Positions 39,669 through 55,530 of a DNA stretch of 64,000 nucleotides are shown here, one piece after another. The notes beneath the pieces were generated by a model. That model ran no database searches, had not been told where the DNA came from, and was given only the letters and a program-made list of their open reading frames with translations. A program made the translations under genes and the position numbers. The stretch is from Planctomycetota bacterium (GTDB lineage: Bacteria; Planctomycetota; J058), in assembly GCA_019636275.1 (NCBI GenBank), contig JAHBXY010000002.1:56213-120212 (forward strand), read 5' to 3'. How positions within the stretch are numbered: position 1 is the first letter of the stretch; each line of letters begins with the position of its first letter.

Positions 39669-41075
39669 CTACGTGGTCGCGGAGTCGATGGAGACGACGG
39701 CGACGCTGCTCGAAGACCCCCGGCGCTTGAGGCGAGCCACGATCGCAGCCACGTCGGCGGTGATGCCCATCGCAGCCTCGAGCGTCTTCGCGGACTTGCT
39801 GATGCCCTTGAGCAGCCCGACATAGTGACGCTCGGCGATCACGATCGAATGGCCGAGGCGCTTGGCGGAGTGGAAAGCGGCGGCGGCCGCGTAGATGCCC
39901 GGCGCGTTGGTCAGGAACGTGCCGCACGTGGCCCGCAGCGCGGGCGTCTCGTCCTCGGTCTGCGACCAGCAGAAGTCCGGCGCACCGAGCTCGTCGACGA
40001 GGCGCTTGCGCGCCGACTCGACCTTGGAACGAGACCAGGGCTCCTTGCCACCGAAGACGTACACGTCGTCCTTTCCGCGCTCGAGGGCCTCCAGGATCTT
40101 CTTGAGGCCCGGGCAGATGCTGAGGTCGATCGCGCGCTCGTGACCCGTCTTGACGTCGCCGGCGCGCAGGACGATCTCCCCTGCCTTCCTGCCCCGGCCG
40201 TCGCGGGCGTCGAAGTCGACGGAGGCCCAGCGGAGCATGAGCGCCTCGTCGCGGCGGCAGCCGGTCAGGAGCATGAAGACGATGAACGGTGCGATCGGGT
40301 CGTACTTCGGGGTGCCGCCCTTCGCACCCGCTGCCTTCTCGGTGCGAGTCATGACGAACGTGCCGGTGTCGTGGCTGAGCGCGGCCTGGAGCAGCGTCTT
40401 GATCTGCGCGACGCGGAGGAAAGCAGGCCGAGGCTTCGCGGTCTTGAGGGGCTTGATGCGGTCCTTGATGTCGTCGGACGTGATGTGAGGCAGGCGGCCG
40501 ACTCGGCGGAGCTGGTTAAGGATCGCCTTGACGGAGCGCAGGCGGTTGTTGACCCCACCGGGGGAGCAGGTGCGATCGCTCGGCGCGCGCTCGGTGCGGC
40601 GTCCGCCCTTGACGGGCCTCTTGGCGGGCCTCGCCGCCAGCCACTCGACGAACGCGGCCAGGTGGTGCGGCCGGAGATCGTCGGCGAGACGGATCCGGTT
40701 GATGTTCGCCCACTCGAGGAAGATCGTCGTGGCGGTGCGGTAGGTCTTTGGGGTGGACCCCTTGAGCCGCGCGCCCTTGGTGCTGAAGTAGCCCTCGATC
40801 GCGTCCGCGAGAGACGCGCCGGTGTGTGTCGCCGCCCCCGTGGCGAGCTTGCGCTCGCGTTCGCCCAGCGCGAGGGACTTCGTGATCATCCACTTCCGGC
40901 GCCCCTCCGCGGTCGTGATCCCCTCTGGCTCGAAGGAGAACTCCCGCGGCTTCCCGGTGTCCGGGTCGAACCAGCGCGCGCGGAGGTCGAGGCCGGCTGC
41001 GCTCCGTCGCTTGACCTCGAACACGCCCGGATGGGCCGACCTGGCCCTCCGGCGCTGCACCTTCTTCACGATCAC
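39669..41075 (-). CDS. int: tyrosine-type site-specific recombinase / phage integrase
   Basis: C-terminal catalytic region LLTGCRRDEALMLRW ... HSAKRLGHS ... ERHYVG; N-terminal SAM-like domain. Confidence 0.8.
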   Translation of the reverse strand: MIVKKVQRRRARSAHPGVFEVKRRSAAGLDLRARWFDPDTGKPREFSFEPEGITTAEGRRKWMITKSLALGERERKLATGAATHTGASLADAIEGYFSTKGARLKGSTPKTYRTATTIFLEWANINRIRLADDLRPHHLAAFVEWLAARPAKRPVKGGRRTERAPSDRTCSPGGVNNRLRSVKAILNQLRRVGRLPHITSDDIKDRIKPLKTAKPRPAFLRVAQIKTLLQAALSHDTGTFVMTRTEKAAGAKGGTPKYDPIAPFIVFMLLTGCRRDEALMLRWASVDFDARDGRGRKAGEIVLRAGDVKTGHERAIDLSICPGLKKILEALERGKDDVYVFGGKEPWSRSKVESARKRLVDELGAPDFCWSQTEDETPALRATCGTFLTNAPGIYAAAAAFHSAKRLGHSIVIAERHYVGLLKGISKSAKTLEAAMGITADVAAIVARLKRRGSSSSVAVVSIDSATT

Positions 41076-41085
41076 CTCCGATCGG

Positions 41086-41146
41086 CTCAGTCAACAAGCC
41101 AGTCAACAATAGCGCGTCCGTCGGGGTCCGTGCGAGTCCGTCGGAG
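41086..41146. promoter_or_regulatory. direct repeats (2 x agtcaacaa; 2 x (c/a)gtccgtcgg(g/a)g) between integrase start and tRNA fragment, candidate arm-type recombinase-binding sites
   Basis: Seen in sequence; related GTCAA(C/T)A motifs recur at 41325 and 41337 on the other side of the tRNA fragment. Confidence 0.3.
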
Positions 41147-41199: not shown

Positions 41200-41246
41200 C
41201 GTGACTGAAAATCACGGAGTCGGCGGTTCAAGTCCGCCCTCGTCCA
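41200..41246 (+). other. 3' fragment of a tRNA-Phe(GAA) gene (anticodon arm, variable loop, T-arm, acceptor 3' strand + discriminator A); 5' half absent. Putative att site of the integrase
   Basis: cgtga-CTGAAAA-tcacg (anticodon GAA), gagtc, ggcgg-TTCAAGT-ccgcc, ctcgtcc-a; upstream sequence cannot form acceptor or D stems. Confidence 0.55.
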
Positions 41247-41260
41247 TGCGGTAAGAGAAG

Positions 41261-41287: not shown

Positions 41288-41708
41288 TCTGCGTTCCGGC
41301 GGAGCCGCGGTCGTTCAGTCAATACGCCGGTCAACATTCGCGCGGGCCATGGCCGCGCCCGATGACAACGGGCCGCCTCTCGTGGTCAGGAGCCGCACTC
41401 CTGATCCAAGGGGCTCGCGTGCGCGTGCCCCCTCCTGAGCTCACAGGGTGGAGCTTCTTCGGCGCGGTCGCGGACTGGGCTGCAGCACGAGGCACCGAAC
41501 CGGTGCCAGGAGAGCTGCATGTCCCTTCTGCTTCTCGACCTCGACGCCCGCGTCCGCGTCGCCATGATCGCGGAGCTCGATCGCGACCTCGCCGGCGACG
41601 GCCCCTTCATCTCGCCGCGGCTCACGCCGCCGGGGGTCGCGCTCGTGGAGCTCGTGAGCGTGGCGGCCCGCCAGGCCGCGACGGTCGGCCGGAACGAGGT
41701 CTGCCCTC

Positions 41709-42437
41709 GTGGTGCGCCCGGCGCGAACGGGAAGCGGAAGAAGTTCAAGAACTGCTGCCTGGTCCCGCTCGATCGCGTGGGGCCGCCGGCAGGGAGCGGC
41801 GGTGGACGACGAACTGATCGACGACCTGGTCGAGCGCGACGCGGCCGTGTCGGTGTGGCGCTTCCACGAGGAGCCGCGCGCGCTGTGGTCGGTGATCCGC
41901 GACTTCCTGGGCGGCGGCGGTCACGCGCCGAACGCGGCGCACGTGGCGCTGGCGCGCCTGCCGCTCGCGGGCGTCGTCACGCAGAACGTCGACGGCCTGC
42001 ACCAGGCGACCGGGACGCGCGCGCCGATCGTCGAGCTGCACGGGTCGCTCCTGGCGACCCGCTGCGACGCGTGCGGCGCGCGCGGGCCGGCGTGCGCGGC
42101 GCTGCTCGACGGGCCGCTGCCGCCCCCGTGCGCCTGCGGCGCCGCCCTGCGGCCCGACGTCGTGCTCTTCGGCGAGTGGGTCGCGCCCGACCGGCTCGCG
42201 CGGGCGCGGGCGCTCGTCGAGCGCTGCGACCTCTTGCTCGTCGTCGGCACGGCGGCCGACGTGTCGCCCGCGGCCGACCTCGTCCGGCTCGCCGCGGCGC
42301 GCGGGGCGCCGGTCGCCGAGGTCAAGCGGCGGCCGTCGTGCCTGCACGAGGCGGCAGGTACGCGGCACCTCCCGGGGGCGGCGGAGGACGTGCTGCCGGC
42401 GGTCGTCGAGCGCCTGCGCGCGCGGGGGACGGCGTGA
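41709..42437 (+). CDS. Sir2-family (CobB-like) protein lacking the N-terminal Rossmann GAGIS motif (truncated/frameshifted)
   Basis: PNAAHVALARL...VVTQNVDGLHQ...ELHGS...CDACG...CACG zinc ribbon; in-frame stop at 41655 prevents N-terminal extension; upstream frame (41519-) has coding GC3 and a SEC-C-like motif KRKKFKNCC. Confidence 0.55.
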   Translation: MVRPARTGSGRSSRTAAWSRSIAWGRRQGAAVDDELIDDLVERDAAVSVWRFHEEPRALWSVIRDFLGGGGHAPNAAHVALARLPLAGVVTQNVDGLHQATGTRAPIVELHGSLLATRCDACGARGPACAALLDGPLPPPCACGAALRPDVVLFGEWVAPDRLARARALVERCDLLLVVGTAADVSPAADLVRLAAARGAPVAEVKRRPSCLHEAAGTRHLPGAAEDVLPAVVERLRARGTA

Positions 42438-43069
42438 GCCTCGACGACGAGCTGCGCCGGCTCGAGCGCGCCGCGGCGCAGGGCGACCCGGAGGCGGCCG
42501 CGCGCCTGGAGGAGCTCCGCCGGCGCGCGGGGCGGCTGATCCCGGTGCCGTTAGTGATCCCGCCCCTCGGCGCGACCGTCGAGGAGGCGGAGGTCGGCGA
42601 GGTCGAGGTCCAGGTCGGGGCGCACGTGCACAAGGGCCAGCCGCTGGTCGTGCTCGAGACCGACAAGGTGTCCGTCGAGCTGGTCGCGCCGGCGGACGGC
42701 GTCGTGACGGCCGTGTCGGCGGGGGCCGGCGAGCGGCTGAGGATCGGCGCCGAGGTGGTGCAGCTCGCCTGCGCCGACCTGCCCGACGACGACCCGTGGG
42801 CGCTCCTGGCCGTGGCGCGCGCCGCGCAGGCGAGCGGGCACGCCGAGCTCGCCCTGCGCGCGCTCGACCGCGCCGTCCCGGCCGCCTCGTGCGGGGCGCT
42901 CTACCGCGAGCGCGACGCCGGGGTCGAGGGCGTCGCGCGCGCGGCGCTACGAGGCGCTCGGGCGGCGGGAGGCGCGGGCCGCTGGCGCGCCGCGCTGGAG
43001 GCGGCGCGCGGCGATGAGGCCCTGCGCGCCGAGGCGGCGGCGCGGCTGGCGGCGCTGGACGCCGGCTGA
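42434..43069 (+). CDS. lipoyl/biotinyl-attachment-like domain protein
   Basis: GTG start overlapping sirtuin stop (GTGA); VVLETDKVSVELVAPADGVVTAV resembles lipoyl-domain core; Ala/Arg-rich C-terminus. Confidence 0.45.
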   Translation: MSLDDELRRLERAAAQGDPEAAARLEELRRRAGRLIPVPLVIPPLGATVEEAEVGEVEVQVGAHVHKGQPLVVLETDKVSVELVAPADGVVTAVSAGAGERLRIGAEVVQLACADLPDDDPWALLAVARAAQASGHAELALRALDRAVPAASCGALYRERDAGVEGVARAALRGARAAGGAGRWRAALEAARGDEALRAEAAARLAALDAG

Positions 43070-43118
43070 CCCGCGCGAGGTGCCGCGGCTGCACGGCCCG
43101 ACGGGCGCGCCATGTGAA
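43011..43118. repeat. direct repeat copy 1 (~105 bp, ~85% identical to 44751-44860); includes the 3' end of gene 42434..43069
   Basis: Aligned by eye: gcgcgcggcgaYgaggccctgcgcgccgaggcRgcggcgcggctggcggcgctggac...tgacc...ggctgcacggcccgac. Confidence 0.7.
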
Positions 43119-43148
43119 GTCGGCTCGTGATGTAGCGGCCCGCGTCAC

Positions 43149-44648
43149 TCACCGCTCCTCGACGGCCTCCCGTACGACGCGCACGCTCACGTCGATCTCG
43201 CGCAGCAGCGAGCGCTCCGCAGGGGTGAAGCCCTCGAACTGGTAGGGGCGGTACTGGAACGGGTGTGCGGTGCGCCACAGCACGTCGCCCGTCGGGACCT
43301 CCTCCGCCGGTCCCAGGAGCGGATAGAGGTAGGTCGCGTTCAGCAGCCACGTGCCAGGGGGCGCCCCGGGCGGGCGCGGCGGCGCGGGCGGCCCGAGCAC
43401 GCTCGCGCGCTCCGCCATGGGCCCGAAGCGCGCGGCGACCTGCCGCTGCGCCTCGTCGGGGAACACGAGCCGCAGCGGGGCGGCGAACTGCGCGCCGGCG
43501 TGCGCGAGGAGCATGGCCCCGAGCGCCGCGCGGGCCGCCGGGGACCCCCGGCGCAGCCGGGGCGCCAGGGCCCACGCGGCCGCCAGGCAGAGGAACGGGA
43601 TCAGCGGGCGGACGAGGCGGCCGTAGACGGTGAACGTCTGGAGCAGCGTGGAGCTGACGGCGAGCGCCGCGTAGATCCCGAGCACCGCTCCCACCCACAG
43701 TCCGCCGCGCGCCCGCTCGCCCGGGTCGCCACAGCGCGCGAGCCGGTGCACCGCGAGCGCCAGCGCGGCGAGCAATCCGGCGAGGAGCGCCTTCTCCGCC
43801 TCCCACAGGTACTCCCACGGCAGGCGCCAGCCCTCGGTGAACGCCCCCTGCGTCACGGTGCGGGCGAAGCTCCGCGCCTCGCGGATGTAGGCGCCTTCGA
43901 GCAGCAACCGGTCCAGCGCCACGACGAGGCCGACCGGGCTCGCCGCGCCGATCCCGAGCGCGACCGCGCGCCGCGCGCGCGCCCACCACGACCCGGCTCG
44001 CCCGGCCGCGACCGCGACGACGCCGCCGGCGAGCATCCAGGAACCGTTGTAGGTGAGGAAGGAGGCCCCGGCGAGGAGCCCGCAGCCGAGGCTGGTCGCG
44101 AGCCGCGGCGCCGGGCTCAGGGCAAGCCAGAGCGCCGCGAGCGCCAGCGCCAGCGCCGCGTCGTAGGGCTGCAGGTGCCGCGCGGGGTAGAACAGGCTGG
44201 TCGAGCAGGCGGCCAGGAGCGCCGCCAGGAGCGCCTCGTCGGGCGGCGCGCCCATGCGCCTGGCGAGCGCGTGCACGAGGCCGATCAGGGCCACGGACAC
44301 GAGCGACAGGAAGAGGGCCGGCACCCAGAGGGTCCGCGTCCATGATGCGCGCGACTCGAGGGGCGCCCCGCGCCACACGAGGTAGAGCCCCTGCGCCAGC
44401 GCCGGGGCGGCGCCGACGTGGACCCAGCCGGTGTGCTCCGGGTCGAGGCCCATCTCGGCCGCGGCGGCGATGTCACCCTCGCGGAGGCGGAGGAGCATGA
44501 GGATCGAGCGGCCGAAGCGGCCCTCGTCGGGGAAGAAGGACTGGCCGCCGCCCAGCACCAGCGCGATGCGCACGGCGGCCGAGGCGAGGAGCAGGAGCAG
44601 CAGCGCTCGGCGCTCCCTGGACCTCCACCCCGTGCCCGCGGTCGTCAC
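43149..44648 (-). CDS. polytopic membrane glycosyltransferase-like protein (GT-C fold; ArnT/PMT/GT39-like)
   Basis: GTG start; ~11 hydrophobic helices; Arg-rich loops; bracketed by the 105-bp direct repeats. Confidence 0.5.
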   Translation of the reverse strand: MTTAGTGWRSRERRALLLLLLASAAVRIALVLGGGQSFFPDEGRFGRSILMLLRLREGDIAAAAEMGLDPEHTGWVHVGAAPALAQGLYLVWRGAPLESRASWTRTLWVPALFLSLVSVALIGLVHALARRMGAPPDEALLAALLAACSTSLFYPARHLQPYDAALALALAALWLALSPAPRLATSLGCGLLAGASFLTYNGSWMLAGGVVAVAAGRAGSWWARARRAVALGIGAASPVGLVVALDRLLLEGAYIREARSFARTVTQGAFTEGWRLPWEYLWEAEKALLAGLLAALALAVHRLARCGDPGERARGGLWVGAVLGIYAALAVSSTLLQTFTVYGRLVRPLIPFLCLAAAWALAPRLRRGSPAARAALGAMLLAHAGAQFAAPLRLVFPDEAQRQVAARFGPMAERASVLGPPAPPRPPGAPPGTWLLNATYLYPLLGPAEEVPTGDVLWRTAHPFQYRPYQFEGFTPAERSLLREIDVSVRVVREAVEER

Positions 44649-44750
44649 GGCGGCGAGCCTACACCGGGCGCCATCGTGCCGCAGGCCTCGCGGAGTCAGC
44701 CGCCTGCGCCGCTGCTCGGCGGTCCAGGCGCAGCGACCAGGCGGCGCGTC

Positions 44751-44860
44751 GAGGCGCGCGGCGACGAGGCCCTGCGCGCCGAGGCAGCGGCGCGGCTGGC
44801 GGCGCTGGACACGGGTTGACCCCACGCAAGCGCGGCGGCTGCACGGCCCGACCGCGTGCC
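44751..44860. repeat. direct repeat copy 2 (duplicated 3' end ...RGDEALRAEAAARLAALD(T/A)G*)
   Basis: See copy 1. Confidence 0.7.
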
Positions 44861-44894
44861 ATCGATCCCACCCTCCGTGCATGGAGGGTGACGC

Positions 44895-45929
44895 GTGCTC
44901 TGCGACAAGACGACCCTGCGTGCGCGCTACGACGCGATCCTGGCCGCGGGCTGCCTCGACCCGGCGCAGCAGGCGCGGGTCCGGGCGGGCGAGGCGCCGC
45001 CCGGGGTCGTGCTCCAGCAGAGCGGCGGCTCGAGCGGCGAGGCGCCCCTGCGGCTCCCCAAGGCCCGGGCCGAGACGGCCTGGCTGATCGACCGGCTGGC
45101 CGGGCACCACCGCCGCGTCTTCGGCGAGGCGCCCCGGCGCGTGGCGTTCGTCGGCGGCGTGACGCACCTCCAGGCGGGGCGCGTGGAGGGCCTGTTCCCC
45201 GGCGGCGTGACGCGCAGCTTCCGCCTGCGCGAGTGGGACGCGCTGGTCGCGTTCCAGCCGGACCTCCTCTCCTGCTACCCGAGCGCGGCGCGCGACCTCG
45301 TCGTCCGCGACGCCGCGGCGCTCGGCTGCGTGCGCACGCTGAAGCTCGGCGGCGAGACCGTCCTGCCGGCCGACCGGGCGCGCCTCCTCGAGCGCCTCCC
45401 GGGGGTCCTGCTCCTCGAGCAGTTCGGCTCGACCGAGATGCCTTGCCTGGCGCTCCGCGCCACGACCCGCGACGAGGACACGGGCTACGTCCTGAGCCGC
45501 GACCGCTACGCGTTCAGCTTCGAGCCGCCCGGCGAGGGCTGGCGCGAGGTCGTCGTGCGCGACGACCTCCCGGCGCGGGCGTTCCCGATCCCCGGCTGGT
45601 ACCGCACCGGCGACGAGGCGCTCCTCGACCCGGGCGGCCGCGTCCTGGCCCTGCGGCGCCGGGGCGACCCCGCCGCGCCGTTCCTCGACGCGCTCGACGC
45701 GCTGGTCCGCGCGGGCTGCACGCAGGTGCAGGTGGACCTGCGCGACCGCACGCTGCGCCTCGAGGCCGGGCCGGAGGTGCGGCTCGAGCGCGAGGTGGTC
45801 CTCGGCGGCGTCACGCTCGCCGTCGAGCGCGGGCCGGTCTACCGGCTGAAGGACTCGAACAAGGCGCCGCTGGTCCTGGCGGCGGTGGGCCGCGCGCCGA
45901 CCTGGCGCCGGCCGGAGGAGGAGGCATGA
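44895..45929 (+). CDS. adenylate-forming enzyme, phenylacetate-CoA ligase (PaaK)/F390-synthetase-like
   Basis: QQSGGSSGEAP (SxGTTGxP-like P-loop), YRTGD motif; GGAGGG RBS before GTG. Confidence 0.6.
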   Translation: MLCDKTTLRARYDAILAAGCLDPAQQARVRAGEAPPGVVLQQSGGSSGEAPLRLPKARAETAWLIDRLAGHHRRVFGEAPRRVAFVGGVTHLQAGRVEGLFPGGVTRSFRLREWDALVAFQPDLLSCYPSAARDLVVRDAAALGCVRTLKLGGETVLPADRARLLERLPGVLLLEQFGSTEMPCLALRATTRDEDTGYVLSRDRYAFSFEPPGEGWREVVVRDDLPARAFPIPGWYRTGDEALLDPGGRVLALRRRGDPAAPFLDALDALVRAGCTQVQVDLRDRTLRLEAGPEVRLEREVVLGGVTLAVERGPVYRLKDSNKAPLVLAAVGRAPTWRRPEEEA

Positions 45930-46924
45930 GCTCGCCGTTCACGATCACCACGGTGGAGGAGCTGCGCGCCGGCGTCGGCGAGCTGCTCGAGCGCGTCTAC
46001 GTCGACGAGTGGGGCAAGCGCCTGGCGCCCGCCGCCGGGCGCACGCGCCGCGGATCGAGCCGCACGCTGATCGCGGTCGACCGGGGCCGCGTCGTGGGGA
46101 CCGCCCGGCTCACCCGCGGCTCGGTCCTGCCGCTCGAGGAGCAGCGCCGCCTCCAGCTCCCGCACTTCGCCGCCGTCGTCCCGCTCGAGCGGCTGGCGGT
46201 CGGCGGGCGCCTCGCCGTCGCCGCGCCCCTGCGCTCGTCGGGCCTGGCGCACGACCTGCTGCAGGCCGCGATCCGCGCGGCGGTCGACGACGGCGTGCGG
46301 CTGCTGTTCACCGCCTGCCAGCCGCACCTGCTGAACCTCTACGGCCAGCTCGCGTTCACCCCCTACGGGCCGGTCTCGAGCAAGGAGGGCGTGGGCGTCC
46401 TGGTCCCGGTGGTCCGCGACCTGACCCCGGGCGACGCGGCCCTGCGCGACCTGATCGCGAGCGCGCCCGGTCACGCGGCGCGCTGCCGGCTCCCGGGCGA
46501 GCTCGGCGAGGCCCTCGCGGGGAGCCCGCTCGACCCGACCGTCGCCGCGGCGGTGCTGCGCAGCGCGGCCCTCGTCCCCTGCGGCCCGGGCGACCTCGTC
46601 GTCAGCCGCGGGCAGGCGGTCCGCACGCTGTTCCTCGTGCTCGAGGGGCGGATCGACGTCGTCGACGACGGGCAGGTCGTCGACGTCGTCGCGCGCGGCG
46701 AGTTCGCGGGCGTGGTCAGCTACCTGCTCGGGGTGCGGCAGCGCCGCGACCTGCGCGCCGGCCCCGAGGGCGCCCGGCTCCTGGCCCTGCCCGTCCAGGC
46801 CTTCGCCAGCCGCGGCGACGACGAGGCCGCCGCCGAGGCGTTCCTGCTGACCCTGGTCGCGACGCTCCGCGCGCGCTGCCCGCACGCGGCCGCCCGCCTG
46901 GTCAGCCCTGGAGGTGTCGCGTGA
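45926..46924 (+). CDS. GNAT-fold N-acyltransferase (acyl-amino-acid/AHL-synthase-like) fused to a C-terminal cyclic-nucleotide-binding domain
   Basis: ATGA overlap with upstream gene; LLFTACQPHLLNLYGQLAFTPYG; cNMP-binding signature RGEFAGVVSYLLGVRQRRDLRA. Confidence 0.5.
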   Translation: MSSPFTITTVEELRAGVGELLERVYVDEWGKRLAPAAGRTRRGSSRTLIAVDRGRVVGTARLTRGSVLPLEEQRRLQLPHFAAVVPLERLAVGGRLAVAAPLRSSGLAHDLLQAAIRAAVDDGVRLLFTACQPHLLNLYGQLAFTPYGPVSSKEGVGVLVPVVRDLTPGDAALRDLIASAPGHAARCRLPGELGEALAGSPLDPTVAAAVLRSAALVPCGPGDLVVSRGQAVRTLFLVLEGRIDVVDDGQVVDVVARGEFAGVVSYLLGVRQRRDLRAGPEGARLLALPVQAFASRGDDEAAAEAFLLTLVATLRARCPHAAARLVSPGGVA

Positions 46925-47802
46925 GCGTCCTCGTCGAGGGCAGCGGCACGGCGCAGATGATCGCGCGCTGCCTGGTCCTGCTCCGCGCCTCGGCCGGGCC
47001 CGCCGCGCCCGTGTCCGAGCGCGCCGCCCTGCTCGCCCTGGCGTTCCTGCGCGAGGCGCGCCCCCCGTGGCGCCGCGCGCTCGAGGCCGGCCTGGCGCGC
47101 GGGCGCCTCCGGCTGCTCGAGGCGCTGACGATCCCCGGCCTCGTCGGCCAGTACGCCCTGCGCAAGCGCTGGCTCGAGGACGTCGCCCGGCGCGCCGTGG
47201 CGGCGGGGGTGCGGCGCGTGGTGGTGGTCGGGGCGGGCTACGACCCGCTCGCCGCGACGCTCGCGGCCGAGCTCCCGCACGTGCGCTTCGTCGAGCTCGA
47301 CCACCCGGCCACGCAGGCGCCCAAGCGGCGCGCCCTCGAGGCGCTCGGGCTCCTCGGCCCGGTCGAGCTCCTGGCCGTCGACCTCGAGCGCACGTCGCTG
47401 GCCGACGCCCTCGGCGGGCGCGCCGACCGCGCGCTGCCGACGCTCTTCGTCGCCGAGGGCCTCCTCATGTACTTCCCGGCCGCCGCCGTCGGCGCCTTCT
47501 TCGAGGACCTGGGCCGGGTCGCGGGGCCGGGGAGCCAGGTGGCGTTCAGCTTCATGGAGCCGGACGCCGGCGGCGGGCTGGCCTACCGCGGCTCGACGCG
47601 GCTGGCGAACGCCTGGCTCCGCTGGCGCGGCGAGCCCCTGCGCTGGGGGATCGCGCGCGCCGCGCTGGCCGACTTCCTTCACGGCCACGGCCTCTCGCTG
47701 CTCGAGACCGCCGCGTCCGACGAGCTGCGCGACCGCTACCTGCCCGGCGCCGAGGTCGCGCGGGGCGAGGTCCTGGCCCTGGCGCGGCTGGAGGGGCCCT
47801 GA
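46921..47802 (+). CDS. SAM-dependent methyltransferase (leucine-carboxyl/TcmP-like O-methyltransferase family)
   Basis: GTGA overlap; VVVVGAGYDPL motif; length ~293 aa. Confidence 0.6.
   Translation: MSVLVEGSGTAQMIARCLVLLRASAGPAAPVSERAALLALAFLREARPPWRRALEAGLARGRLRLLEALTIPGLVGQYALRKRWLEDVARRAVAAGVRRVVVVGAGYDPLAATLAAELPHVRFVELDHPATQAPKRRALEALGLLGPVELLAVDLERTSLADALGGRADRALPTLFVAEGLLMYFPAAAVGAFFEDLGRVAGPGSQVAFSFMEPDAGGGLAYRGSTRLANAWLRWRGEPLRWGIARAALADFLHGHGLSLLETAASDELRDRYLPGAEVARGEVLALARLEGP
47653..47802. repeat. direct repeat copy 1 = 3' end of the methyltransferase gene; copy 2 at 52612-52716 has a ~48-bp internal deletion
   Basis: gcgcgccgcgctggccgacYtcct...gcgcgRccgctacctgcccggcgccg(a/c)ggtcgcgcggggcgaggtcct(g/c)gccctggcgcgg. 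Confidence 0.7.
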
Positions 47803-47874
47803 TGCCGACCGCGGAAGCTCGAGCGTGGCCGCGCCCCCCGCCTCCTCATGGCAGGGGCGGCGTCCGGAGGGACG

Positions 47875-48747
47875 ATGAGTCCCATGTCCGACGGGTCCAT
47901 GCCAGCGGCGTTCCTGGGCCACGGCAGCCCCATGAACGCGCTGGAGACGAATCGCTTCACGGCGGCCTGGCGGGCGTTCGGCGCGAGCGCTCCGCGGCCG
48001 CGCGGCATCGTCGTCGTCTCGGCGCACTGGTACGTGAACGTCACGGCGGTGACCGCCATGCCGTCGCCGCGCACGATCCACGACTTCTACGGCTTCCCGC
48101 GGCCGCTGTTCGAGGTGCAGTACCCCGCGCCGGGCGACCCCGGCCTCGCCGAGGAGGTCGCCGAGGTGGCGAAGCCCACCTCGGTCGGCCTGGACCACGA
48201 CGGCTGGGGGCTCGACCACGGCACCTGGTCGGTGCTGGTCCACGCCTTCCCGCGCGCCGACGTCCCGGTCGTGCAGCTCTCGATCGACGCGCGGCGGACG
48301 TTCGACGAGCACCTCGAGCTCGGGGCGCGGCTGGCGCCGCTCCGCGCGCGTGGCGTGCTGGTCCTGGGCAGCGGTAACGTCGTCCACAACCTGCGCGAGC
48401 TCGACTGGTCCCGGCCGGACCTGGGCGAGGACTGGGCGCGGCGCTTCGACGACGCCGCGCGCGAGGTGCTGGCCGAGCGCCCGGCCGACGCGGCCGCGCT
48501 CCAGGGCCACCCCGAGTTCCGCCGGGCCCACCCGACGCCGGACCACTTCCTCCCCCTGCTGTACGTCGCCGGCGCGGCGGCCGCGGCGGGCAAGCCCCTG
48601 CGGCGGCTCGTCGCAGGGCACGCCTACGGCTCGATCTCCATGGCCGCGTACGGGCTCGCCGCGGCCTGCCCGGAGACCTCCGAGGGCGGCCCCGCCGCGA
48701 GCCTCCCGGACCCGCGCGTCGTCCCCCCGGCGGACGCGAACGTCTGA
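47875..48747 (+). CDS. class III extradiol ring-cleavage dioxygenase (LigB family; YgiD/DOPA-dioxygenase-like)
   Basis: MPAAFLGHGSPMNALE...VVSAHW...; typical length. Confidence 0.7.
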   Translation: MSPMSDGSMPAAFLGHGSPMNALETNRFTAAWRAFGASAPRPRGIVVVSAHWYVNVTAVTAMPSPRTIHDFYGFPRPLFEVQYPAPGDPGLAEEVAEVAKPTSVGLDHDGWGLDHGTWSVLVHAFPRADVPVVQLSIDARRTFDEHLELGARLAPLRARGVLVLGSGNVVHNLRELDWSRPDLGEDWARRFDDAAREVLAERPADAAALQGHPEFRRAHPTPDHFLPLLYVAGAAAAAGKPLRRLVAGHAYGSISMAAYGLAAACPETSEGGPAASLPDPRVVPPADANV

Positions 48748-49013
48748 TCCGAGGAGAAACCAGGTCGGGTCGATGCGCCACCTGCGCAGGAGCGGCGCGG
48801 ACGAGGGGCCACGGAGGTCCCGGCGGCGGGTCGGGCGAGCCCCCGGTTCGCGCGCTCGCGCTGCAACGGCGTACGTCGAGCGGCCTCGCGCGCGCGGTGG
48901 CCGTTGGTCCCGCACGTGCGCTACCTCGGCACGAGGAGAGGGACGCCGCGAGACCGAGGAGCTCGCCGCCGGCGGGGTCACGGTCGTGTCTGGATCCCGG
49001 AGGAAGGTGAAGC

Positions 49014-49604
49014 ATGCTCAAGCTGGCCATCATCATTGGGAGCACGCGCCCGGGGCGCGTCGGCGAGAGCGTCGCTCGGTGGGTCCACGAGGTGGCGCAG
49101 CGGCGCGACGACGCGGAGTTCGAGCTGGTCGACATCGAGGACTTCGACCTGCCGCTGCTGGACGAGCCGATCCCGCCCGCCATGGGCAAGTACTCGAAGC
49201 CCCACACGAAGCGCTGGGCGGCGAAGATCGCCTCCTTCGACGGCTTCGTCTTCGTGACGCCCGAGTACAACCACGGCATCTCCGGCGCGCTGAAGAACGC
49301 GATCGACTTCCTCTACGCCGAGTGGAACGACAAGGTGGCCGGGTTCGTCGGCTACGGCAGCGCGGGCGGCGCGCGGGCCGTGGAGCAGCTGCGGCTGGTC
49401 ATGGCCGAGGTGCAGGTCGCGACGGTGCGCAACCAGGTCATGCTCTCGTTGCGCGAGGACTTCGAGGACTACAGCAGGTTCAGGCCGCGCAGCTTCCACG
49501 AGCAGGCGCTCGGTCAGGTGCTCGACCAGGTCGTCGCCTGGAGCGGCGCGCTCCGCGGCGTCCGGGAGGGGCACGCGACGTCCGGCGCGTCCACGCGCGG
49601 GTAG
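49014..49604 (+). CDS. NAD(P)H-dependent FMN reductase (flavodoxin-like fold)
   Basis: MLKLAIIIGSTRPGRVGE...FVTPEYNHGISGALKNAIDFL. Confidence 0.7.
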   Translation: MLKLAIIIGSTRPGRVGESVARWVHEVAQRRDDAEFELVDIEDFDLPLLDEPIPPAMGKYSKPHTKRWAAKIASFDGFVFVTPEYNHGISGALKNAIDFLYAEWNDKVAGFVGYGSAGGARAVEQLRLVMAEVQVATVRNQVMLSLREDFEDYSRFRPRSFHEQALGQVLDQVVAWSGALRGVREGHATSGASTRG

Positions 49605-49606
49605 CG

Positions 49607-50650
49607 ATGCGCGCGCTGCAGGTGCGGCCGGGGCGCGGGGGCGGGGCGGACCTGGTGTCCGTCGACGAGCCGTCGCCCGACGAGGGCTCCGTCCTCGTCG
49701 AGGCGCTCGCGCTCGGGGTGTGCGGGACGGACCGCGAGATCGTGCGCGACGAGTACGGCGCGCTGCCCCCCGGCGACGAGGCGCTGGTGCTCGGGCACGA
49801 GTCGCTGGGCAGGGTCCTCGCCGCGCCCGCCGGGTGCGAGCTCGCGGCGGGCGACCTCGTGGCCGGCGTCGTGCGACATCCCGACCCGGTCCCCTGCTCG
49901 AGCTGCGGCGCCGGCGAGCCCGACATGTGCAAGAACGGCCGCTACACCGAGCGCGGGATCAAGGGGCGGCACGGCTTCGGGCGCGAGCGCTACCGCCTCG
50001 AGCCGGCCTTCGCGATCAAGGTGCCGCCCGCGCTCGGCCACCTCGGCGTCCTCATCGAGCCCGCGAGCGTCCTGGCGAAGGCCTGGGAGCACATCGAGCG
50101 CATCGGCCGGCGCGCGCACTGGGCGCCGCGCAGGGCCCTCGTGACGGGCGCCGGCCCCGTGGGTCTGCTCGCGGCGCTCATGGCGCGGCAGCGCGGGCTC
50201 GACGTCCACGTCGTCGACCTCGCGCGCGACGGCCCCAAGCCGCAGCTCGTGCGCGACCTCGGCGCCACGTACCACGTGGTCGACGTGGCGAAGGCCTGCA
50301 CGACCGCCGACGTGATCGTCGAGTGCACGGGCGCGCCCGCGCTCGTGCTCGAGGCCATGCGCTGCAACGCGGGCGGCGGGATCGTGTGCCTGGCGGGCCT
50401 GTCCGGCTCGAAGACGCTGGACGTGGACGTGGGCGCGCTGAACCAGCGCCTCGTGCTGCACAACGACGTGATCTTCGGCACGGTCAACGCGAACCGTCGC
50501 CACTACCGCGACGCGGCGGAGGCCCTGCTCGCCGCCGACCGCGCCTGGCTCGAGCGGCTCATCACCCGGCGCGTGCCGCTCGCGCGCTGGGCCGACGCGC
50601 TCGAGGCGCACGAGCACGACGTCAAGGTGGTGATCGACTTCGCCGCGTAG
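49607..50650 (+). CDS. zinc-dependent dehydrogenase, MDR superfamily (glucose-1-dehydrogenase/threonine-dehydrogenase-like)
   Basis: GVCGTDRE, GHE, CxxCxxGxxxxC structural-zinc motif, Rossmann GAGPVGLL. Confidence 0.7.
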   Translation: MRALQVRPGRGGGADLVSVDEPSPDEGSVLVEALALGVCGTDREIVRDEYGALPPGDEALVLGHESLGRVLAAPAGCELAAGDLVAGVVRHPDPVPCSSCGAGEPDMCKNGRYTERGIKGRHGFGRERYRLEPAFAIKVPPALGHLGVLIEPASVLAKAWEHIERIGRRAHWAPRRALVTGAGPVGLLAALMARQRGLDVHVVDLARDGPKPQLVRDLGATYHVVDVAKACTTADVIVECTGAPALVLEAMRCNAGGGIVCLAGLSGSKTLDVDVGALNQRLVLHNDVIFGTVNANRRHYRDAAEALLAADRAWLERLITRRVPLARWADALEAHEHDVKVVIDFAA

Positions 50651-50667
50651 GCGGCGGGAGGGCGGGG

Positions 50668-52500
50668 ATGCCCGCACGGATCGAGGACTACGGGCTCCTG
50701 GGCGACTGCCACTCGGCGGCGCTCGTCTCGCGGGACGGCTCGATCGACTGGCTGTGCTGGCCGCGCTTCGACTCGCCCGCCTGCTTCGCGGCGCTGCTCG
50801 GGACCCCGGACCACGGGCGCTGGCGGATCGCGCCCGAGGGCGCGGTGCGGCGCTCGAACCGCCGGTACCGCGACGGGACGCTCGTCCTCGAGACCGAGCT
50901 CGAGACGGCCGAGGGCGTCGTCGCGCTCATCGACTTCATGCCGCCGCGGGCGGACTGCCCCGAGCTGGTGCGGATCGTCGAGGGCCGGCGCGGCGAGGTC
51001 CCCATGCGCATGGAGCTGATCATGCGCCTCGACTACGGCTCCGTCGTGCCGTGGGTCCGCCGCACCGAGGGCGGTCTGCGCGCCAACGCCGGCCCCGACA
51101 CGCTGCACCTGTTCACGGACGTCGACATCCACGGCGAGGACTTCCGGACGCTGGCCGAGTTCTCGGTGAAGGCGGGCGAGCGCCGCACCTTCCAGCTCGT
51201 GTGGTCACCGACCTTCGGACCCTCGCGACCGTGCGCCGACGCGAGCGGGAAGCTCGAGGAGACCGAGCGCTGGTGGCGCGCCTGGCTCCGCGCGTGCTCT
51301 TACGAGGGGCCCTGGCGCGACGCCGTGCTCAGGTCCTCGCTCGTGCTCAAGGCGCTGACCTACGCGCCGACGGGTGCGATCGTCGCCGCGCCGACGACGT
51401 CGTTGCCCGAGGAGCTCGGCGGCGTGCGCAACTGGGACTACCGCTACTGCTGGCTGCGCGACGCCACGTTCGCGCTCTACGCCTTCCTCGTCGGCGGCTA
51501 CGTCGACGAGGCCGCGGCCTGGCGCGAGTGGCTCGCCAACGCCGTGGCCGGCAAGCCGGAGCAGCTCCACATCATGTACGGCCTCGAGGGCGAGCGCCGC
51601 CTGCCGGAGCTCGAGCTGCCGTGGCTGCCGGGCTACGAGGGCTCGCGGCCCGTCCGCGTGGGCAACGCCGCGCACCACCAGCACCAGCTCGACGTGTACG
51701 GCGAGGTCATGGACGCGCTGCACGTCGCCCGACGCCTCGGCCTGGCCACGACCGAGGACAGCTGGCGCGTGCAGCGGGTGATCGTGCGCTTCCTCGAGCG
51801 CGACTGGCAGCGGCCGGACGACGGCATCTGGGAGGTCCGCGGGGGGCCTCGGCACTTCACCCACTCGAAGGTCATGGCCTGGGTCGCAGCCGACCGCGCC
51901 GTGAAGGCGGTCACGGAGTTCGGGCTCCCGGGCGACGTCGAGCGCTGGCGCCGCCTGCGCGACGAGATCCACGCCGAGGTGTGCGCGCGGGGGTTCGACC
52001 CGCAGCTCGGCGCGTTCGTCCAGCACTACGGCTCGAAGGTCCCGGACGCCAGCCTGCTCATGCTGCCCGCCGTCGGGTTCCTGCCGGCGACGGACCCGCG
52101 CATGGTCGGCACGGTGCGCCTCATCGAGCAGCGCCTGGTGCGTGACGGGTTCGTCGATCGGTACCCGACCGAGCGCGGCGTCGACGGCCTGCCCGGCGGC
52201 GAGGGCGCGTTCCTGCTCTGCACGTTCTGGCTCGTCGACAACCTGGCCCTGCAAGGCCGCCATGACGAGGCGCTCGAGCTCTTCGAGCGCCTCCTCTCGA
52301 TCAGGAACGACCTCGGCCTGCTCTCCGAGGAGTACGACCCGGTCGCGCGGCGCCTGCTCGGCAACTTCCCGCAGGCCTTCTCTCACATCGGCCTGATCAA
52401 CTCCGCGCGCAACCTGGCCGAGCACGGCGGCCCGGCGGAGGACCGCCGGGACCAGGACGCCCGCGCTCAGCGGCCGCTCGCGGCCGCCAGGAGGCGCTGA
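50668..52500 (+). CDS. glycoside hydrolase family 15 protein (glucoamylase/trehalase-like (alpha/alpha)6 barrel)
   Basis: MPARIEDYGLLGDCHSAALVSRDGSIDWLCWPRFDSP...; NWDYRYCWLRDA; GGAGGGCGGGG RBS. Confidence 0.75.
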   Translation: MPARIEDYGLLGDCHSAALVSRDGSIDWLCWPRFDSPACFAALLGTPDHGRWRIAPEGAVRRSNRRYRDGTLVLETELETAEGVVALIDFMPPRADCPELVRIVEGRRGEVPMRMELIMRLDYGSVVPWVRRTEGGLRANAGPDTLHLFTDVDIHGEDFRTLAEFSVKAGERRTFQLVWSPTFGPSRPCADASGKLEETERWWRAWLRACSYEGPWRDAVLRSSLVLKALTYAPTGAIVAAPTTSLPEELGGVRNWDYRYCWLRDATFALYAFLVGGYVDEAAAWREWLANAVAGKPEQLHIMYGLEGERRLPELELPWLPGYEGSRPVRVGNAAHHQHQLDVYGEVMDALHVARRLGLATTEDSWRVQRVIVRFLERDWQRPDDGIWEVRGGPRHFTHSKVMAWVAADRAVKAVTEFGLPGDVERWRRLRDEIHAEVCARGFDPQLGAFVQHYGSKVPDASLLMLPAVGFLPATDPRMVGTVRLIEQRLVRDGFVDRYPTERGVDGLPGGEGAFLLCTFWLVDNLALQGRHDEALELFERLLSIRNDLGLLSEEYDPVARRLLGNFPQAFSHIGLINSARNLAEHGGPAEDRRDQDARAQRPLAAARRR

Positions 52501-52611
52501 CGGTCGCCGGCCTCCGAAGGGGCTCGGGAGCGCCCAGGTGGACGGTCTCGGTGGCGCTCCCAGGACCTGCACGTCGTCGCCGGTCCGGGGAGCCGGGCGG
52601 CGTTCAGGCCT

Positions 52612-52716
52612 CATGCGCGCGCCGCGCTGGCCGACCTCCTGCGCGGCCGCTACCTGCCCGGCGCCGCGGTCGCGCGGGGCGAGGTCCTCGCCCTGGCGCG
52701 GGTGGGGCTCACCTGA
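52612..52716. repeat. direct repeat copy 2 of the methyltransferase 3' end (...LRGRYLPGAAVARGEVLALARVGLT*)
   Basis: See 47653-47802. Confidence 0.7.
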
Positions 52717-55456
52717 CGACGCGGAAGCCGACGTCGTCCGCCCGCGCCTCGGGCGGCAGCCACGACCGGTGGGCCGAGCGCGCCCACGTCGCGTCCCAGG
52801 CGAAGCAGCCGCCGCGCAGCACGCGGCACACCCCGTAGGCCGGCCCGACCGGCGCCTCGGCGGGGCCCTCCTCGTAGGGGCCGTACCAGTCCTGCACCCA
52901 CTCCCAGGCGTTGCCGTGCACGTCGTGGAGGCCCCAGGCGTTGGCGGGCTTGAGCCCCGCCGCGCGGACGCGCCCGCCCGAGTTGTCGCGGAACCAGCCG
53001 ACGCGGTCGAGGTCGTGCACCGCGTCGCCGCTCCAGTAGGCGGTCGCGGTGCCGGCGCGGGCCATGTACTCCCACTCGGCCTCGGTCGGCAGCCGGACGG
53101 GCCGCGCGCCGCCGGCCCGCGAGAGCCAGCGGCAGAACGCGACGGCCCCGTACCAGCTCACGTCGATCGCGGGCTGCGTCGCCCACTCGGCCGGGTCGAC
53201 GCCGGCGGGCGGGCGGTGCGAGGGGGCGAACGCGGCGTACTGGCGGTTGGTCACCTGCGTCGCGCCCGCCTCCCACGCGGCCGGGAAGCTCACGCGGCGG
53301 CGGGGCTGCTCCCAGGGGAAGCCCTGCTCGTCGGGCCGCCCGCCCATGACGAACTCGCCGGCGGGGATCGGCCGCCAGTCGACGAGGTCGCGCGGCGGCG
53401 CGGCGAGGCGGTCGTAGAGCGCCCCGGCGGCGTCCGGCGCGCCGTGGCTGCGGCGCAGGAGCTCGTCGAGGAAGAACAGGTCCTCGGGCACCTCGGTGCC
53501 CCGGGCCAGGGCCGCGTCCCACAGCTCGAGGGCCAGCGCGCGGGCCTGGGCGGGGCTCAGGAGCCGGGCCGTCTGCAGGTAGACCGCGCCGCGGAGCGGG
53601 CCGCGGAAGCACGGGAGCTGCCGGGCGAGCGCGTCGAGGGCCGCGTCGACCTCCAGCCCGTCGACGTGCGCGCGGCCGAGGGCGGTCGTGAGCTCGGCGA
53701 GGCCGGCGCGCCCGGCCGCGTCGTCGCCGATCCACCCGCCGACGCGGTACTCGACCGCCTTCACGAGCCCGACGCGGGCGGAGTCGCCGACGACCGACCA
53801 CCAGTTGCGCATGCCCTCGATGAACGTGCGGGCGCGGGGGCGCTCGTCCTCGAGCGGCCGCGCGGCGGCGACGAGCGCGCGGAGCGTCGCCGGCTCGACG
53901 CGCCGCGCGCACTCGAGCCCGCGGACGGCGAGCTCGGGGTCCGCCTCGGCCAGCGCGAGCAGGAGCGCGTCGGGGCGCGCGAGCTCGCCGCAGAGGAGGA
54001 CGAACGGCTCGGCCCACTGCGAGCGCTCCCCGCCCCGGCGCAGGCCGCGCGCCGCGTCCAGCAGGGCGGCCTCGCCCTGCTCCCGCGCCTGCCGGGCGAG
54101 GCGCCGGGCGGCGAGCAGCTCCTGCAGGCTGCGGTGCCAGAACCGCCACGGGGTGCCCCGCCCGTCGGGCTGGCCGAGGATCGCCGTGCGGTCGGCGAGC
54201 TCGGTCAGGAACTCCTCGGGCCCGGCGGCCCAGCGCGAGACGCGCTCGAGGCGCTGCCAGAGCGGCGGCTCGTCGCGGAGTCGCCGCGCGACGGCGGCCA
54301 GCGGCTCCGCCACGACGCCCTCGCCGGTGAAGGCGTGCGCGACCAGCTCCAGGGCCTCCTCGGCGGCGACCAGGTCGGTCATGCGCGGCGCGGCCTCGGT
54401 CCGGTGGAGCCCCTCGAGGAGCAGCTCGAGGACCTGCGTGTAGAGCTCGTGGCGGGTCCGCGGCGGCGCCGCGCCGCCCCCGGTCGTCGGATGCGGGCGG
54501 TGCTCGCCGAGGAGGGCCGCGAAGGTCAGGAGCAGGGGGGTGCGCCGCAGCTCCGGCGCGTCGAGCAGGCCTTCGGGCAAGGCCGACGTGGCCTCTGTCC
54601 GCCCCAGGCGGCGGAGGAAGTCGGCCACCTGCGCGTCGCTCAGCGGGTTGAGCGTGGCGATCTCGAAGCCGCCGGGGCAGCGCAGGCCCTGCGGCCGGCT
54701 GGTGACGACGATCGGAGAGGGCCACGCTGCCGCCGCGACCTTCAGCAGGCTGCGCACCTGCTCGCGCTTGACCGGCAGCACCTCGTCGAGGCCGTCGAGG
54801 AGCAGCACCAGGCCGCCCTGAGCCGCCAGCTCGACCAGCGCCGGGGCGTGGGCGCCCTTCGAGGCCAGGAGCGACTCCGGGAGGTCCGGCCGGAAGGGCT
54901 CCAGGGCCAGCTCGGCCAGCCGGACGACGACCGGGTGGTGCTCGGCGAGCTCGTCGCAGGCGAGGTCGTGGGCCAGGGCGTGGACGAGCGTCGTCTTGCC
55001 GGAGCCGACGTCGCCCACGACCAGCCAGCGCCCGGGGCCGTCGTCGCGCGAGCTCCAGAGGAGGCTCCTGGGGCGCTCCGCGGCGCGGGTCGGCGAGAGC
55101 GCCAGCGTCCGCTCGATCGCGTGGTCGCGCAGGGGCAGGGCGCGCGAGAGCGTCATGCCGGTCAGGAGGTTGGCGTTGCCGCTGTCCGCCGCGACGGCGG
55201 CGCGGAGGCGCTCCAGGTCCGACAGGGGCTCGCCGAGGGGCGCGGGGGTGTCCGCGAGCTGGAGCTGAGCGATCGACCGGGCGAGCGCCTTCGCCACGCT
55301 CCCGAGCGACCCCCGGCGCACGCGCTCGCCGCGCTCGATCCGGCGCAGCGTCTGGACGTCCACGAAGGCCTTGTCCGCCAGGCCCTCCTGGCTCCAACCC
55401 TTTGCTTCGCGAAGGGTTCGGACGAGCCCGCCGTTGGCACGTACCTCTCGCCGCAT
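52709..55456 (-). CDS. STAND NTPase: N-terminal XRE-type HTH, NACHT ATPase, helical region, C-terminal FGE-sulfatase (SUMF1/formylglycine-generating-enzyme-like) domain
   Basis: HTH LRTLREAKGWSQEGLADKAFVDVQTLRRIERG; Walker A VVGDVGSGKTT; Walker B VLLLDGLDEV; C-terminal ...WYGAVAFCRWLS...RLPTEAEWEYMARAG...GLHDVHGNAWEW...RVLRGGCF (FGE-sulfatase fold). The ATG of MRREV is read ~1 nt from the computed in-frame codon at 55456. Confidence 0.7.
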   Translation of the reverse strand: MRREVRANGGLVRTLREAKGWSQEGLADKAFVDVQTLRRIERGERVRRGSLGSVAKALARSIAQLQLADTPAPLGEPLSDLERLRAAVAADSGNANLLTGMTLSRALPLRDHAIERTLALSPTRAAERPRSLLWSSRDDGPGRWLVVGDVGSGKTTLVHALAHDLACDELAEHHPVVVRLAELALEPFRPDLPESLLASKGAHAPALVELAAQGGLVLLLDGLDEVLPVKREQVRSLLKVAAAAWPSPIVVTSRPQGLRCPGGFEIATLNPLSDAQVADFLRRLGRTEATSALPEGLLDAPELRRTPLLLTFAALLGEHRPHPTTGGGAAPPRTRHELYTQVLELLLEGLHRTEAAPRMTDLVAAEEALELVAHAFTGEGVVAEPLAAVARRLRDEPPLWQRLERVSRWAAGPEEFLTELADRTAILGQPDGRGTPWRFWHRSLQELLAARRLARQAREQGEAALLDAARGLRRGGERSQWAEPFVLLCGELARPDALLLALAEADPELAVRGLECARRVEPATLRALVAAARPLEDERPRARTFIEGMRNWWSVVGDSARVGLVKAVEYRVGGWIGDDAAGRAGLAELTTALGRAHVDGLEVDAALDALARQLPCFRGPLRGAVYLQTARLLSPAQARALALELWDAALARGTEVPEDLFFLDELLRRSHGAPDAAGALYDRLAAPPRDLVDWRPIPAGEFVMGGRPDEQGFPWEQPRRRVSFPAAWEAGATQVTNRQYAAFAPSHRPPAGVDPAEWATQPAIDVSWYGAVAFCRWLSRAGGARPVRLPTEAEWEYMARAGTATAYWSGDAVHDLDRVGWFRDNSGGRVRAAGLKPANAWGLHDVHGNAWEWVQDWYGPYEEGPAEAPVGPAYGVCRVLRGGCFAWDATWARSAHRSWLPPEARADDVGFRVVR

Positions 55457-55530
55457 CCTGCCTACGTGACCCTCGATCGGATTGTAGCGGAGCTGCCCCA
55501 ACCCTCGCCACGTCCAGTAAATACGCACCG

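Follow-up and report, generated by a model that had tools for sequence, protein, structure and literature searches.

We analyzed a stretch of 64,000 nucleotides (nt) from a Planctomycetota bacterium (assembly GCA_019636275.1, contig JAHBXY010000002.1, positions 56,213 to 120,212 of the forward strand; hereafter referred to as the window), in which two imperfect direct repeats, each carrying the 3' end of a gene for a lipoyl/biotinyl-carrier-domain protein (hereafter the lipoyl gene), flank a single gene of opposite orientation that encodes a predicted GT-C-type membrane glycosyltransferase. An initial annotation of the window had described imperfect direct repeats of ~105 bp that carry a gene 3' end and enclose one opposite-strand GT-C glycosyltransferase gene, and both observations were borne out. 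The features at the center of this analysis are as follows:

42434-43069, plus strand: lipoyl/biotinyl-carrier-domain gene, 211 aa (Pfam Biotin_lipoyl, E = 2e-15; NCBIfam E2 lipoyl domains)
43003-43113, plus strand: repeat copy 1, i.e., the functional lipoyl-gene 3' end (22 codons and TGA, 43003-43069) and a 44-nt spacer ending in GCCAT
43114-44752, no strand assigned: segment of 1639 nt, probably inserted, comprising the glycosyltransferase gene with 35 nt of 3' flank and with an upstream region of its own of 104 nt
43149-44648, minus strand: predicted GT-C-fold membrane glycosyltransferase gene, 499 aa (polytopic membrane protein)
44753-44862, plus strand: repeat copy 2, i.e., a displaced, non-functional lipoyl-gene tail and spacer, located between the glycosyltransferase gene and a divergently oriented operon headed by an adenylating-enzyme gene
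44858-44894, plus strand: leader of this operon, with the motif GCCATCGATC, a predicted hairpin and a Shine-Dalgarno sequence, followed by a GTG start codon at 44895

The two repeat copies (hereafter pair 1) align over 112 columns with 98 identities (88%) and 3 gap columns at a spacing of 1750 nt (E = 2e-33 in a comparison of 1.4 kb against 1.4 kb), and an ungapped repeat search recovered them with 87% identity over 100 nt. In a self-comparison of the whole window, pair 1 was the fourth-strongest repeat (E = 4.8e-30). Within the coding part, 56 of 58 nt are identical between the copies (E = 4e-24), while the best other match to this part within the 64 kb is 29 nt at 90%; moreover, the homology continues for 44 nt beyond the stop codon, and the non-coding part compared alone still yielded a colinear exact 18-mer (E = 3e-5). 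As the repeat extends past the stop codon and the next-best coding match is only 29 nt long, runs of Ala and Arg codons do not explain it, even though GC content rises from 71% for the window to 77-81% around these features. The copies thus represent homologous, duplicated DNA, and low complexity does not account for their similarity. The retained and the displaced tail specify the same peptide, ARGDEALRAEAAARLAALD(A/T)G; the coding signal in third-position GC content is absent from the frame of copy 2.

Loci used for comparison are designated here by L numbers and individual proteins by P numbers. Both repeat copies are also present in L001, an independent assembly from another sample, which is 96.9% identical to window positions 41830-51445. 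Relative to the window, copy 2 of L001 has a further 12-nt deletion (removing RLAA) and extra substitutions, which, together with the lack of a third-position GC signal, indicates that the orphan copy drifts freely. In a four-way alignment of the two copies from both genomes, the copies group by position and not by genome (e.g., GAT in both copies 1 and GAC in both copies 2); the duplication is therefore older than the divergence of these genomes and does not stem from misassembly.

The glycosyltransferase gene is the only gene in the segment between the copies. Its start codon was fixed by a 61%-identical homologue at an unlinked, housekeeping-type glycosyltransferase locus (L014), to which nucleotide homology is confined to window positions 43137-44671, i.e., the gene plus just 12-23 nt per side; for the 81 nt between the edge of this homology and copy 2 (44672-44752), no match was found among the other sequences compared. 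An AlphaFold model built on 23 homologues had a pLDDT of 94 and a pTM of 0.93, and the top ~28 Foldseek matches of this model in the PDB were all GT-C enzymes, including STT3/AglB, ArnT, PMT, ALG9, AftD, Emb and PimE (probability 1.0, TM about 0.45-0.51). Residues D41-E42, within FWPDE, are invariant in the 23 homologues and in the predicted model start the second helix (40-56), after a non-helical stretch (33-39) that follows the first long helix; as modeled, they would represent the conserved acidic motif in the first extracytoplasmic loop of GT-C enzymes. The protein itself has no Pfam or NCBIfam match and a profile search found no match among PDB sequences, while three of the 23 homologues match Pfam PMT_2 (best E = 2e-5). 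The model and its Foldseek matches thus support the GT-C label at the level of the fold, and the gene appears to encode a member of the GT-C glycosyltransferase superfamily.

An open reading frame (ORF) at 44418-44819, which the initial annotation had taken for a remnant gene, did not prove to be one, as only its last 22 codons (66 nt) are homologous to the lipoyl gene. The rest lies antisense to the 5' end of the glycosyltransferase gene, is free of stop codons and shows no third-position GC signal of its own. Similarly, the glycosyltransferase call in L001 (P0014, 566 aa) runs through copy 2 in a frame that is broken by a 1-nt indel between the two genomes. Both the remnant ORF and the 566-aa call are artefacts of the scar, which in this respect aids annotation by accounting for spurious ORFs and gene calls. 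Base composition did not help to trace the origin of the segment: total GC content is 74-77% for the inserts (including the second one described below) and 78-81% for the surrounding gene island, and third-position GC content is 0.95-0.99 in both gene sets, so that composition is uninformative as to a foreign origin.

The C-terminal tail contained in the repeat is native to the lipoyl protein family. This family is small (three relatives in all in a collection of 5.8 billion proteins, including the hypothetical protein KF878_01270 of a Planctomycetes bacterium metagenome-assembled genome, to which the lipoyl protein is 100% identical), and an exact look-up of the window protein gave no match. 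One of the relatives is encoded on L001. The homologues P0002 and P0003 end in the same manner, and the third relative, at L002 (lipoyl protein 66% identical), has the homologous tail ...ALREEAAARVARLQT. To the right of its lipoyl gene, L002 carries a tRNA-like sequence (1093-1167) and then a minus-strand HNH-like gene (CANCHRLR motif), and neither the glycosyltransferase gene nor the operon follows. The right-hand neighbor of the Sir2/lipoyl gene pair thus varies. The neighbor in L002 appears to be tRNA-associated.

The operon to the right of copy 2 consists of three translationally coupled genes, assigned by Pfam:

44895-47802, plus strand: three-gene operon
44895-45929, plus strand: adenylate-forming-enzyme-like gene
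45926-46924, plus strand: FeeM/GNAT gene with a cNMP-binding domain
46921-47802, plus strand: LCM-type methyltransferase gene

The same three genes occur in the same order, with varied neighbors, in L001, L003-L009 and L011-L012, while L010 and L013 are truncated contigs carrying only the first operon genes. Orthologues of the adenylating enzyme are 58-80% identical and always head this operon where the contig extends far enough. Upstream, the orthologous operons adjoin a Na/H antiporter fusion, a 2137-aa protein, a PALP enzyme, a formyltransferase or small ORFs, and in relatives beyond L001 neither Sir2, nor the lipoyl gene, nor the glycosyltransferase gene was found upstream. What is conserved upstream is the leader: in the predicted fold, 44869-44876 pairs with 44883-44890 and sequesters the GGAGGG Shine-Dalgarno sequence, and GCCATCGATC together with this anti-Shine-Dalgarno hairpin is kept in L003, L007, L013, the window and L001, while beyond the leader the upstream regions of the orthologous operons (L003-L013) are unrelated. 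Both repeat copies end at GCCAT, which lies inside the leader motif and is the start of the conserved leader. Beyond GCCAT, copy 2 leads into CGATC, the hairpin and the operon start codon, and copy 1 into the flank on the 3' side of the glycosyltransferase gene. Copy 1 thus bears the leading bases of the operon leader, and copy 2 bears the tail of the lipoyl gene. Since the leader is conserved in relatives that have neither lipoyl gene nor insert, and the repeat ends at GCCAT, the operon was probably at one time the direct neighbor of the lipoyl gene.

The outer pair of the hairpin shows a compensatory change between the window (CCCTCC-GTGCAT-GGAGGG) and L003 (TCCTCC-TCGCAT-GGAGGA). The leader has no Rfam match; it may represent a translational control element for the operon. 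A scan of genome and metagenome contigs for GGCTGCACGGCCCGAC-N5-8-GCCAT returned five loci, none of them related to the window by blastn, and these hits were attributed to chance.

A like pattern had been reported at 47653/52612, and this second pair indeed has the same anatomy. The main match of pair 2 lies between 47717-47844 and 52631-52750 (82%, E = 5e-27), with further fragments between 47504-47556 and 52562-52615 and between 47653-47678 and 52615-52640; overall identity is 80-96%, the orphan has two internal deletions, and extension past 47844/52750 was not significant. The features of this second locus are:

47504-47844, plus strand: copy 1 of pair 2, i.e., the functional LCM 3' end and ~42 nt that duplicate, in decayed form, the end of the convergent NACHT gene (3' side)
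47845-52561, plus strand: second block of 4.7 kb, probably inserted, with four genes (LigB-like, FMN reductase, Zn-dehydrogenase/glucose dehydrogenase and GH15 glucoamylase/trehalase-like; Pfam)
52562-52750, plus strand: copy 2 of pair 2, a decayed orphan LCM 3' fragment that overlaps the functional NACHT 3' end
52709-55741, minus strand: HTH-NACHT-FGE-sulfatase gene (STAND NTPase; Pfam/NCBIfam), convergent to LCM

In L011, the NACHT protein is 78% identical to that of the window over 917 aa and the adenylating enzyme is 79% identical; the four-gene block is absent there, and the LCM gene directly adjoins the NACHT gene, with an overlap of the two 3' ends. In the window, the orphan LCM fragment sits at the position of the LCM/NACHT junction, attached to the functional NACHT end, and the decayed piece after the functional LCM copy corresponds to the last ~14 NACHT codons. 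L011 is thus effectively an empty site for the second event, the NACHT gene is the ancestral convergent neighbor of the LCM gene, and each copy of pair 2 has kept its necessary half, with decay of the remaining one. Pair 2 probably reflects an independent event of the same type as pair 1. Where the contig reaches beyond the LCM gene, either a convergent STAND NTPase gene (window, L011) or a Ser/Thr kinase gene (L004-L006) follows. The three-gene module together with the Sir2/lipoyl-carrier pair looks like an uncharacterized signaling or conflict-type island.

We consider it probable that pair 1, with its 111-nt copies, arose as a long duplication of the target when a single gene was inserted. 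Before this event, the lipoyl stop codon would have lain ~75 nt upstream of the operon start codon. A 1.64-kb segment (the GT-C gene with a short upstream region of its own) would then have joined in opposite orientation, leaving 111 nt of target, i.e., 22 codons, the stop codon, the spacer and the initial 5 nt of the leader, on both sides. The left copy would have stayed with the lipoyl gene and kept it complete, while the right copy would have stayed with the operon and preserved its leader, possibly also its promoter, with the lipoyl-tail part now functionless and decaying.

As to the molecular route, we favor either of two possibilities, namely one-sided homologous recombination with an illegitimate second junction (homology-facilitated illegitimate recombination, HFIR) or single-crossover (Campbell-type) integration of a circular fragment carrying the 111-nt segment; in either case, the resulting order would be complete gene, cargo, displaced 3' fragment. 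The same product would be expected from a replicative template switch returning 111 nt upstream. As in Campbell-type integration (e.g., of suicide plasmids, or at merodiploid/duplication junctions in transformation), direct repeats of a homologous segment flank the cargo, repeat length is arbitrary (here 0.1-0.4 kb) and the event would be reversible by recombination between the repeats. Unlike typical cases of such integration, no replicon or vector remnant is present here, the origin of a circle made of one gene and 111 nt is unexplained, and the copies have diverged by 12%.

The notion of a common cassette-insertion or recombination mechanism for both pairs was upheld in part. Insertion into a formerly contiguous gene array is indicated for both, by the empty LCM/NACHT junction of L011 for pair 2 and by the leader motif cut by the repeat edge for pair 1. 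A dedicated mobile-cassette mechanism, on the other hand, did not find support: the inserts contain no recombinase or transposase, terminal inverted repeats and an attC-like structure are absent, and the two repeat pairs share no core. What the two pairs have in common is the outcome, i.e., a long target duplication with a displaced 3' end, and general recombination can produce it. Transposon target-site duplications are 2-15 bp, of fixed length and accompanied by terminal inverted repeats and a transposase. The window resembles transposon insertions in that target DNA is directly duplicated on both sides, but its duplications are 111 nt and at least 190 nt (190-340 nt) long, with neither inverted repeats nor a transposase. 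Integron cassettes carry an attC site, an imperfect palindrome that folds as single strand, and are co-oriented downstream of intI/attI; here, by contrast, the repeat folds no better than shuffled sequences, the glycosyltransferase gene has the opposite orientation, and the repeats are copies of the neighboring gene and not of each other across cassettes.

A closer parallel is offered by the Rhs, contact-dependent inhibition (CDI) and type VI secretion system (T6SS) effector-immunity arrays, in which C-terminal displacement leaves orphan 3' fragments and has been attributed to HFIR (Kirchberger et al. 2017, PMC5361080); the same topic of displacement is the one for which that paper cites Jackson et al. 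2009. Like these arrays, both pairs 1 and 2 show a complete gene, acquired DNA and an orphan 3' fragment lacking its 5' part, without a dedicated recombinase and with recurrence of the pattern within one locus. In the arrays, by contrast, the 3' end that arrives specifies another, polymorphic toxin domain and is accompanied by the cognate immunity gene, whereas here it is the same tail (88%); furthermore, the cargo here is an unrelated opposite-strand gene and the duplication includes intergenic DNA and the start of the operon leader. Overall, the reading of the initial annotation, insertion by recombination, twice, is right in outline, and the structure is a known kind of recombination scar and not a new element.

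Several points weigh against insertion next to a formerly adjacent operon. No genome with an empty lipoyl/operon junction was found, either among the relatives or in the contig scan, and the most distant lipoyl relative, L002, has a tRNA and an HNH gene next to the lipoyl gene and not the operon. The part of the conserved leader that copy 1 includes with certainty amounts to just 5-6 nt, or up to ~15 nt with L003 and L007, which is thin at 78-80% GC. The copies are also better conserved than neutral decay predicts in their coding part (56/58 nt, as compared to ~77% for the 44 non-coding nt), for which gene conversion, a diverged donor or constraint could be responsible. Microhomology at the junctions (GAGGC on the right, 1-3 nt on the left) is uninformative because of the GC content of ~80%. 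Finally, HFIR, Campbell-type integration and template switching would leave the same end product, from which they cannot be separated.

An alternative order of events, in which a tandem duplication of the lipoyl gene (or of its 3' part) came first and the glycosyltransferase gene later overwrote or truncated the second copy, so that the orphan would be what is left of a destroyed paralogue, would lead to the same final structure, and the orphan of pair 2, with ~190 of roughly 340 nt surviving and internal deletions, does resemble an old pseudogene. This order seems unlikely, as it needs two events per locus, twice. Moreover, lipoyl-gene sequence is absent left of 44753, where 104 nt without any match to the lipoyl gene separate copy 2 from the start of the glycosyltransferase gene. 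Since copy 1 reaches into the operon leader at its right edge, the end of the tandem unit would also have to coincide exactly with the beginning of the insert. A single combined event for both pairs, i.e., an island interleaved with a backbone running from the glycosyltransferase gene through LigB to GH15, was rejected as less parsimonious, no adjacency of glycosyltransferase and LigB genes having been observed.

We regard as similarly unlikely an extension of the insertion reading, according to which accessory genes are recurrently loaded into the island without a recombinase, with both insertions linked to circles that carried the cargo together with a 0.1-0.4-kb copy of a gene-end/intergenic junction and that integrated by single crossover. 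If this were so, RecA-mediated recombination between the direct repeats could excise such genes and re-integrate them in related genomes, and repeat-flanked genes would act as homology-addressed cassettes.

It is rather improbable that the repeats represent attL and attR of an integrative element of the tyrosine-recombinase type that targets gene 3' ends and supplies a replacement 3' end, either as a remnant of which the glycosyltransferase gene alone is left or as a cassette moved in trans by the product of an integrase-like gene at 39669-41075. Direct repeats with the 3' end of the target gene, the left one better conserved than the right, are the classic signature of such elements, and the distance to the integrase-like gene and to a tRNA 3' fragment on the upstream side is 2-3 kb. 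As at attachment sites in the 3' ends of tRNA or protein genes, the repeats here are imperfect, of a size comparable to ~50-110 nt, and the element-proximal copy keeps the gene intact. Unlike in such elements, neither integrase nor excisionase is found inside the insert, which consists of a single housekeeping-type gene. Pfam and NCBIfam scans revealed a recombinase in neither of the two inserts, the two pairs have no core in common (alignment score 29, as compared to 26.9 +/- 4.7 in shuffles), and alignment of the insert ends for inverted repeats was no better than for shuffled sequences. In addition, a 22-nt motif beside the tRNA fragment and the integrase-like gene occurs nowhere else in the window, and the integrase match remains below the Pfam gathering score.

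Retention of copy 2 as a cis-acting element (an operon promoter or operator that once lay inside the lipoyl 3' end) or as a regulatory RNA is, in our estimation, very improbable. Copy 2 does lie within the divergent promoter region, the first 58 nt are 97% identical between the copies, and an 18-nt block (GCGGCTGCACGGCCCGAC) is identical in all four copies from the two genomes. However, the folding energies of both copies on both strands are no better than those of shuffled sequences (z from -1.0 to +1.3), neither an Rfam match nor, in a consensus scan, a promoter or terminator was found, copy 2 of L001 has lost 12 nt, and the operons of L003-L013 have unrelated sequence above the GCCATCGATC leader. 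Chance similarity in Ala/Arg-rich coding DNA, or an assembly artefact, can be discounted almost entirely, since, despite a region of 78-80% GC with many short GC-rich repeats, the match has an E of 2e-33, runs 44 nt past the stop codon, exceeds by far the 29 nt of the next-best coding match in 64 kb, and is found with both copies in the independent assembly L001.

Insertion of single genes or small blocks, with duplication of the target, thus remains the explanation that we prefer. The two pairs would provide a doubly documented example of how such DNA is spliced between tightly packed or overlapping genes while neither neighbor is destroyed, and the scars help to reconstruct a putative ancestral island of the order Sir2, lipoyl carrier, adenylating enzyme-FeeM-LCM and NACHT. 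They reveal no new mobile element and no new molecular function.

The lipoyl gene is translationally coupled, via a GTGA overlap, to a Sir2-like gene directly upstream:

41709-42437, plus strand: Sir2-family gene

The lipoyl protein has an ETDK lysine motif and a TPR-like, Ala/Arg-rich C-terminus. Between 42900 and 42990 the window gene apparently differs from its homologues by two compensating frameshifts (TPR-like RARGYEALGRREQARACWRAAL in P0002 and P0003, GVARAALRGARAAGGAGRWRAAL in the window), and the third-position GC signal changes frame in the same stretch; these frameshifts represent either gene decay or consensus errors of the metagenome-assembled genome. A TPR-like gene upstream in L024, which ends with "...QAELARL", was considered as a further lipoyl relative and rejected, as it shows no significant similarity to the lipoyl gene. 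Searches of a plasmid collection gave only a 69-nt lipoyl-domain match in Sinorhizobium megaplasmids, and searches of a phage collection gave no match.

The Sir2-like gene of the window (region 41519-42437) is 5'-truncated as compared to L001 (242 aa vs. 431 aa). Homology to L001 starts at 41830, the window gene lacks the GAGLS NAD-binding motif found in L001, a small ORF that bears a SEC-C-like motif (GKRKKFKNCC) extends into the gene, and ~2.9 kb of L001 correspond to 0.5 kb in the window. The window Sir2 gene has probably been inactivated or remodeled.

Further upstream, the integrase-like gene at 39669-41075 (minus strand) matches Pfam Phage_integrase with E = 7e-6, just under the gathering score. 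Positions 41200-41247 resemble the 3' part of a tRNA-Phe(GAA), with anticodon arm, T arm and acceptor 3' strand and no 5' half; ARAGORN and Rfam detected no tRNA in the window. This fragment is flanked by the 22-nt direct repeat TCAGTCAAyAnGCCnGTCAACA (41087-41108 and 41315-41336; 0 expected by chance), and L001 starts with the same tRNA fragment and a closely similar copy of the motif, CTCAGTCAACACGCCGGTCATC. The tRNA fragment and the 22-nt repeat have the appearance of att-type remains of an integrative element situated on their left side, in DNA of 60-69% GC.

Self-comparison of the window also revealed a ~2-kb pair (15806-18691 and 25198-28068; 66-70% identity) within paralogous large minus-strand genes, a tandem repeat around 6.8-7.3 kb (6762-7281), and repeats of 130-175 nt (24826-24958 / 29446-29893) in the 5' regions of minus-strand genes that end near 24.9 and 30.2 kb.

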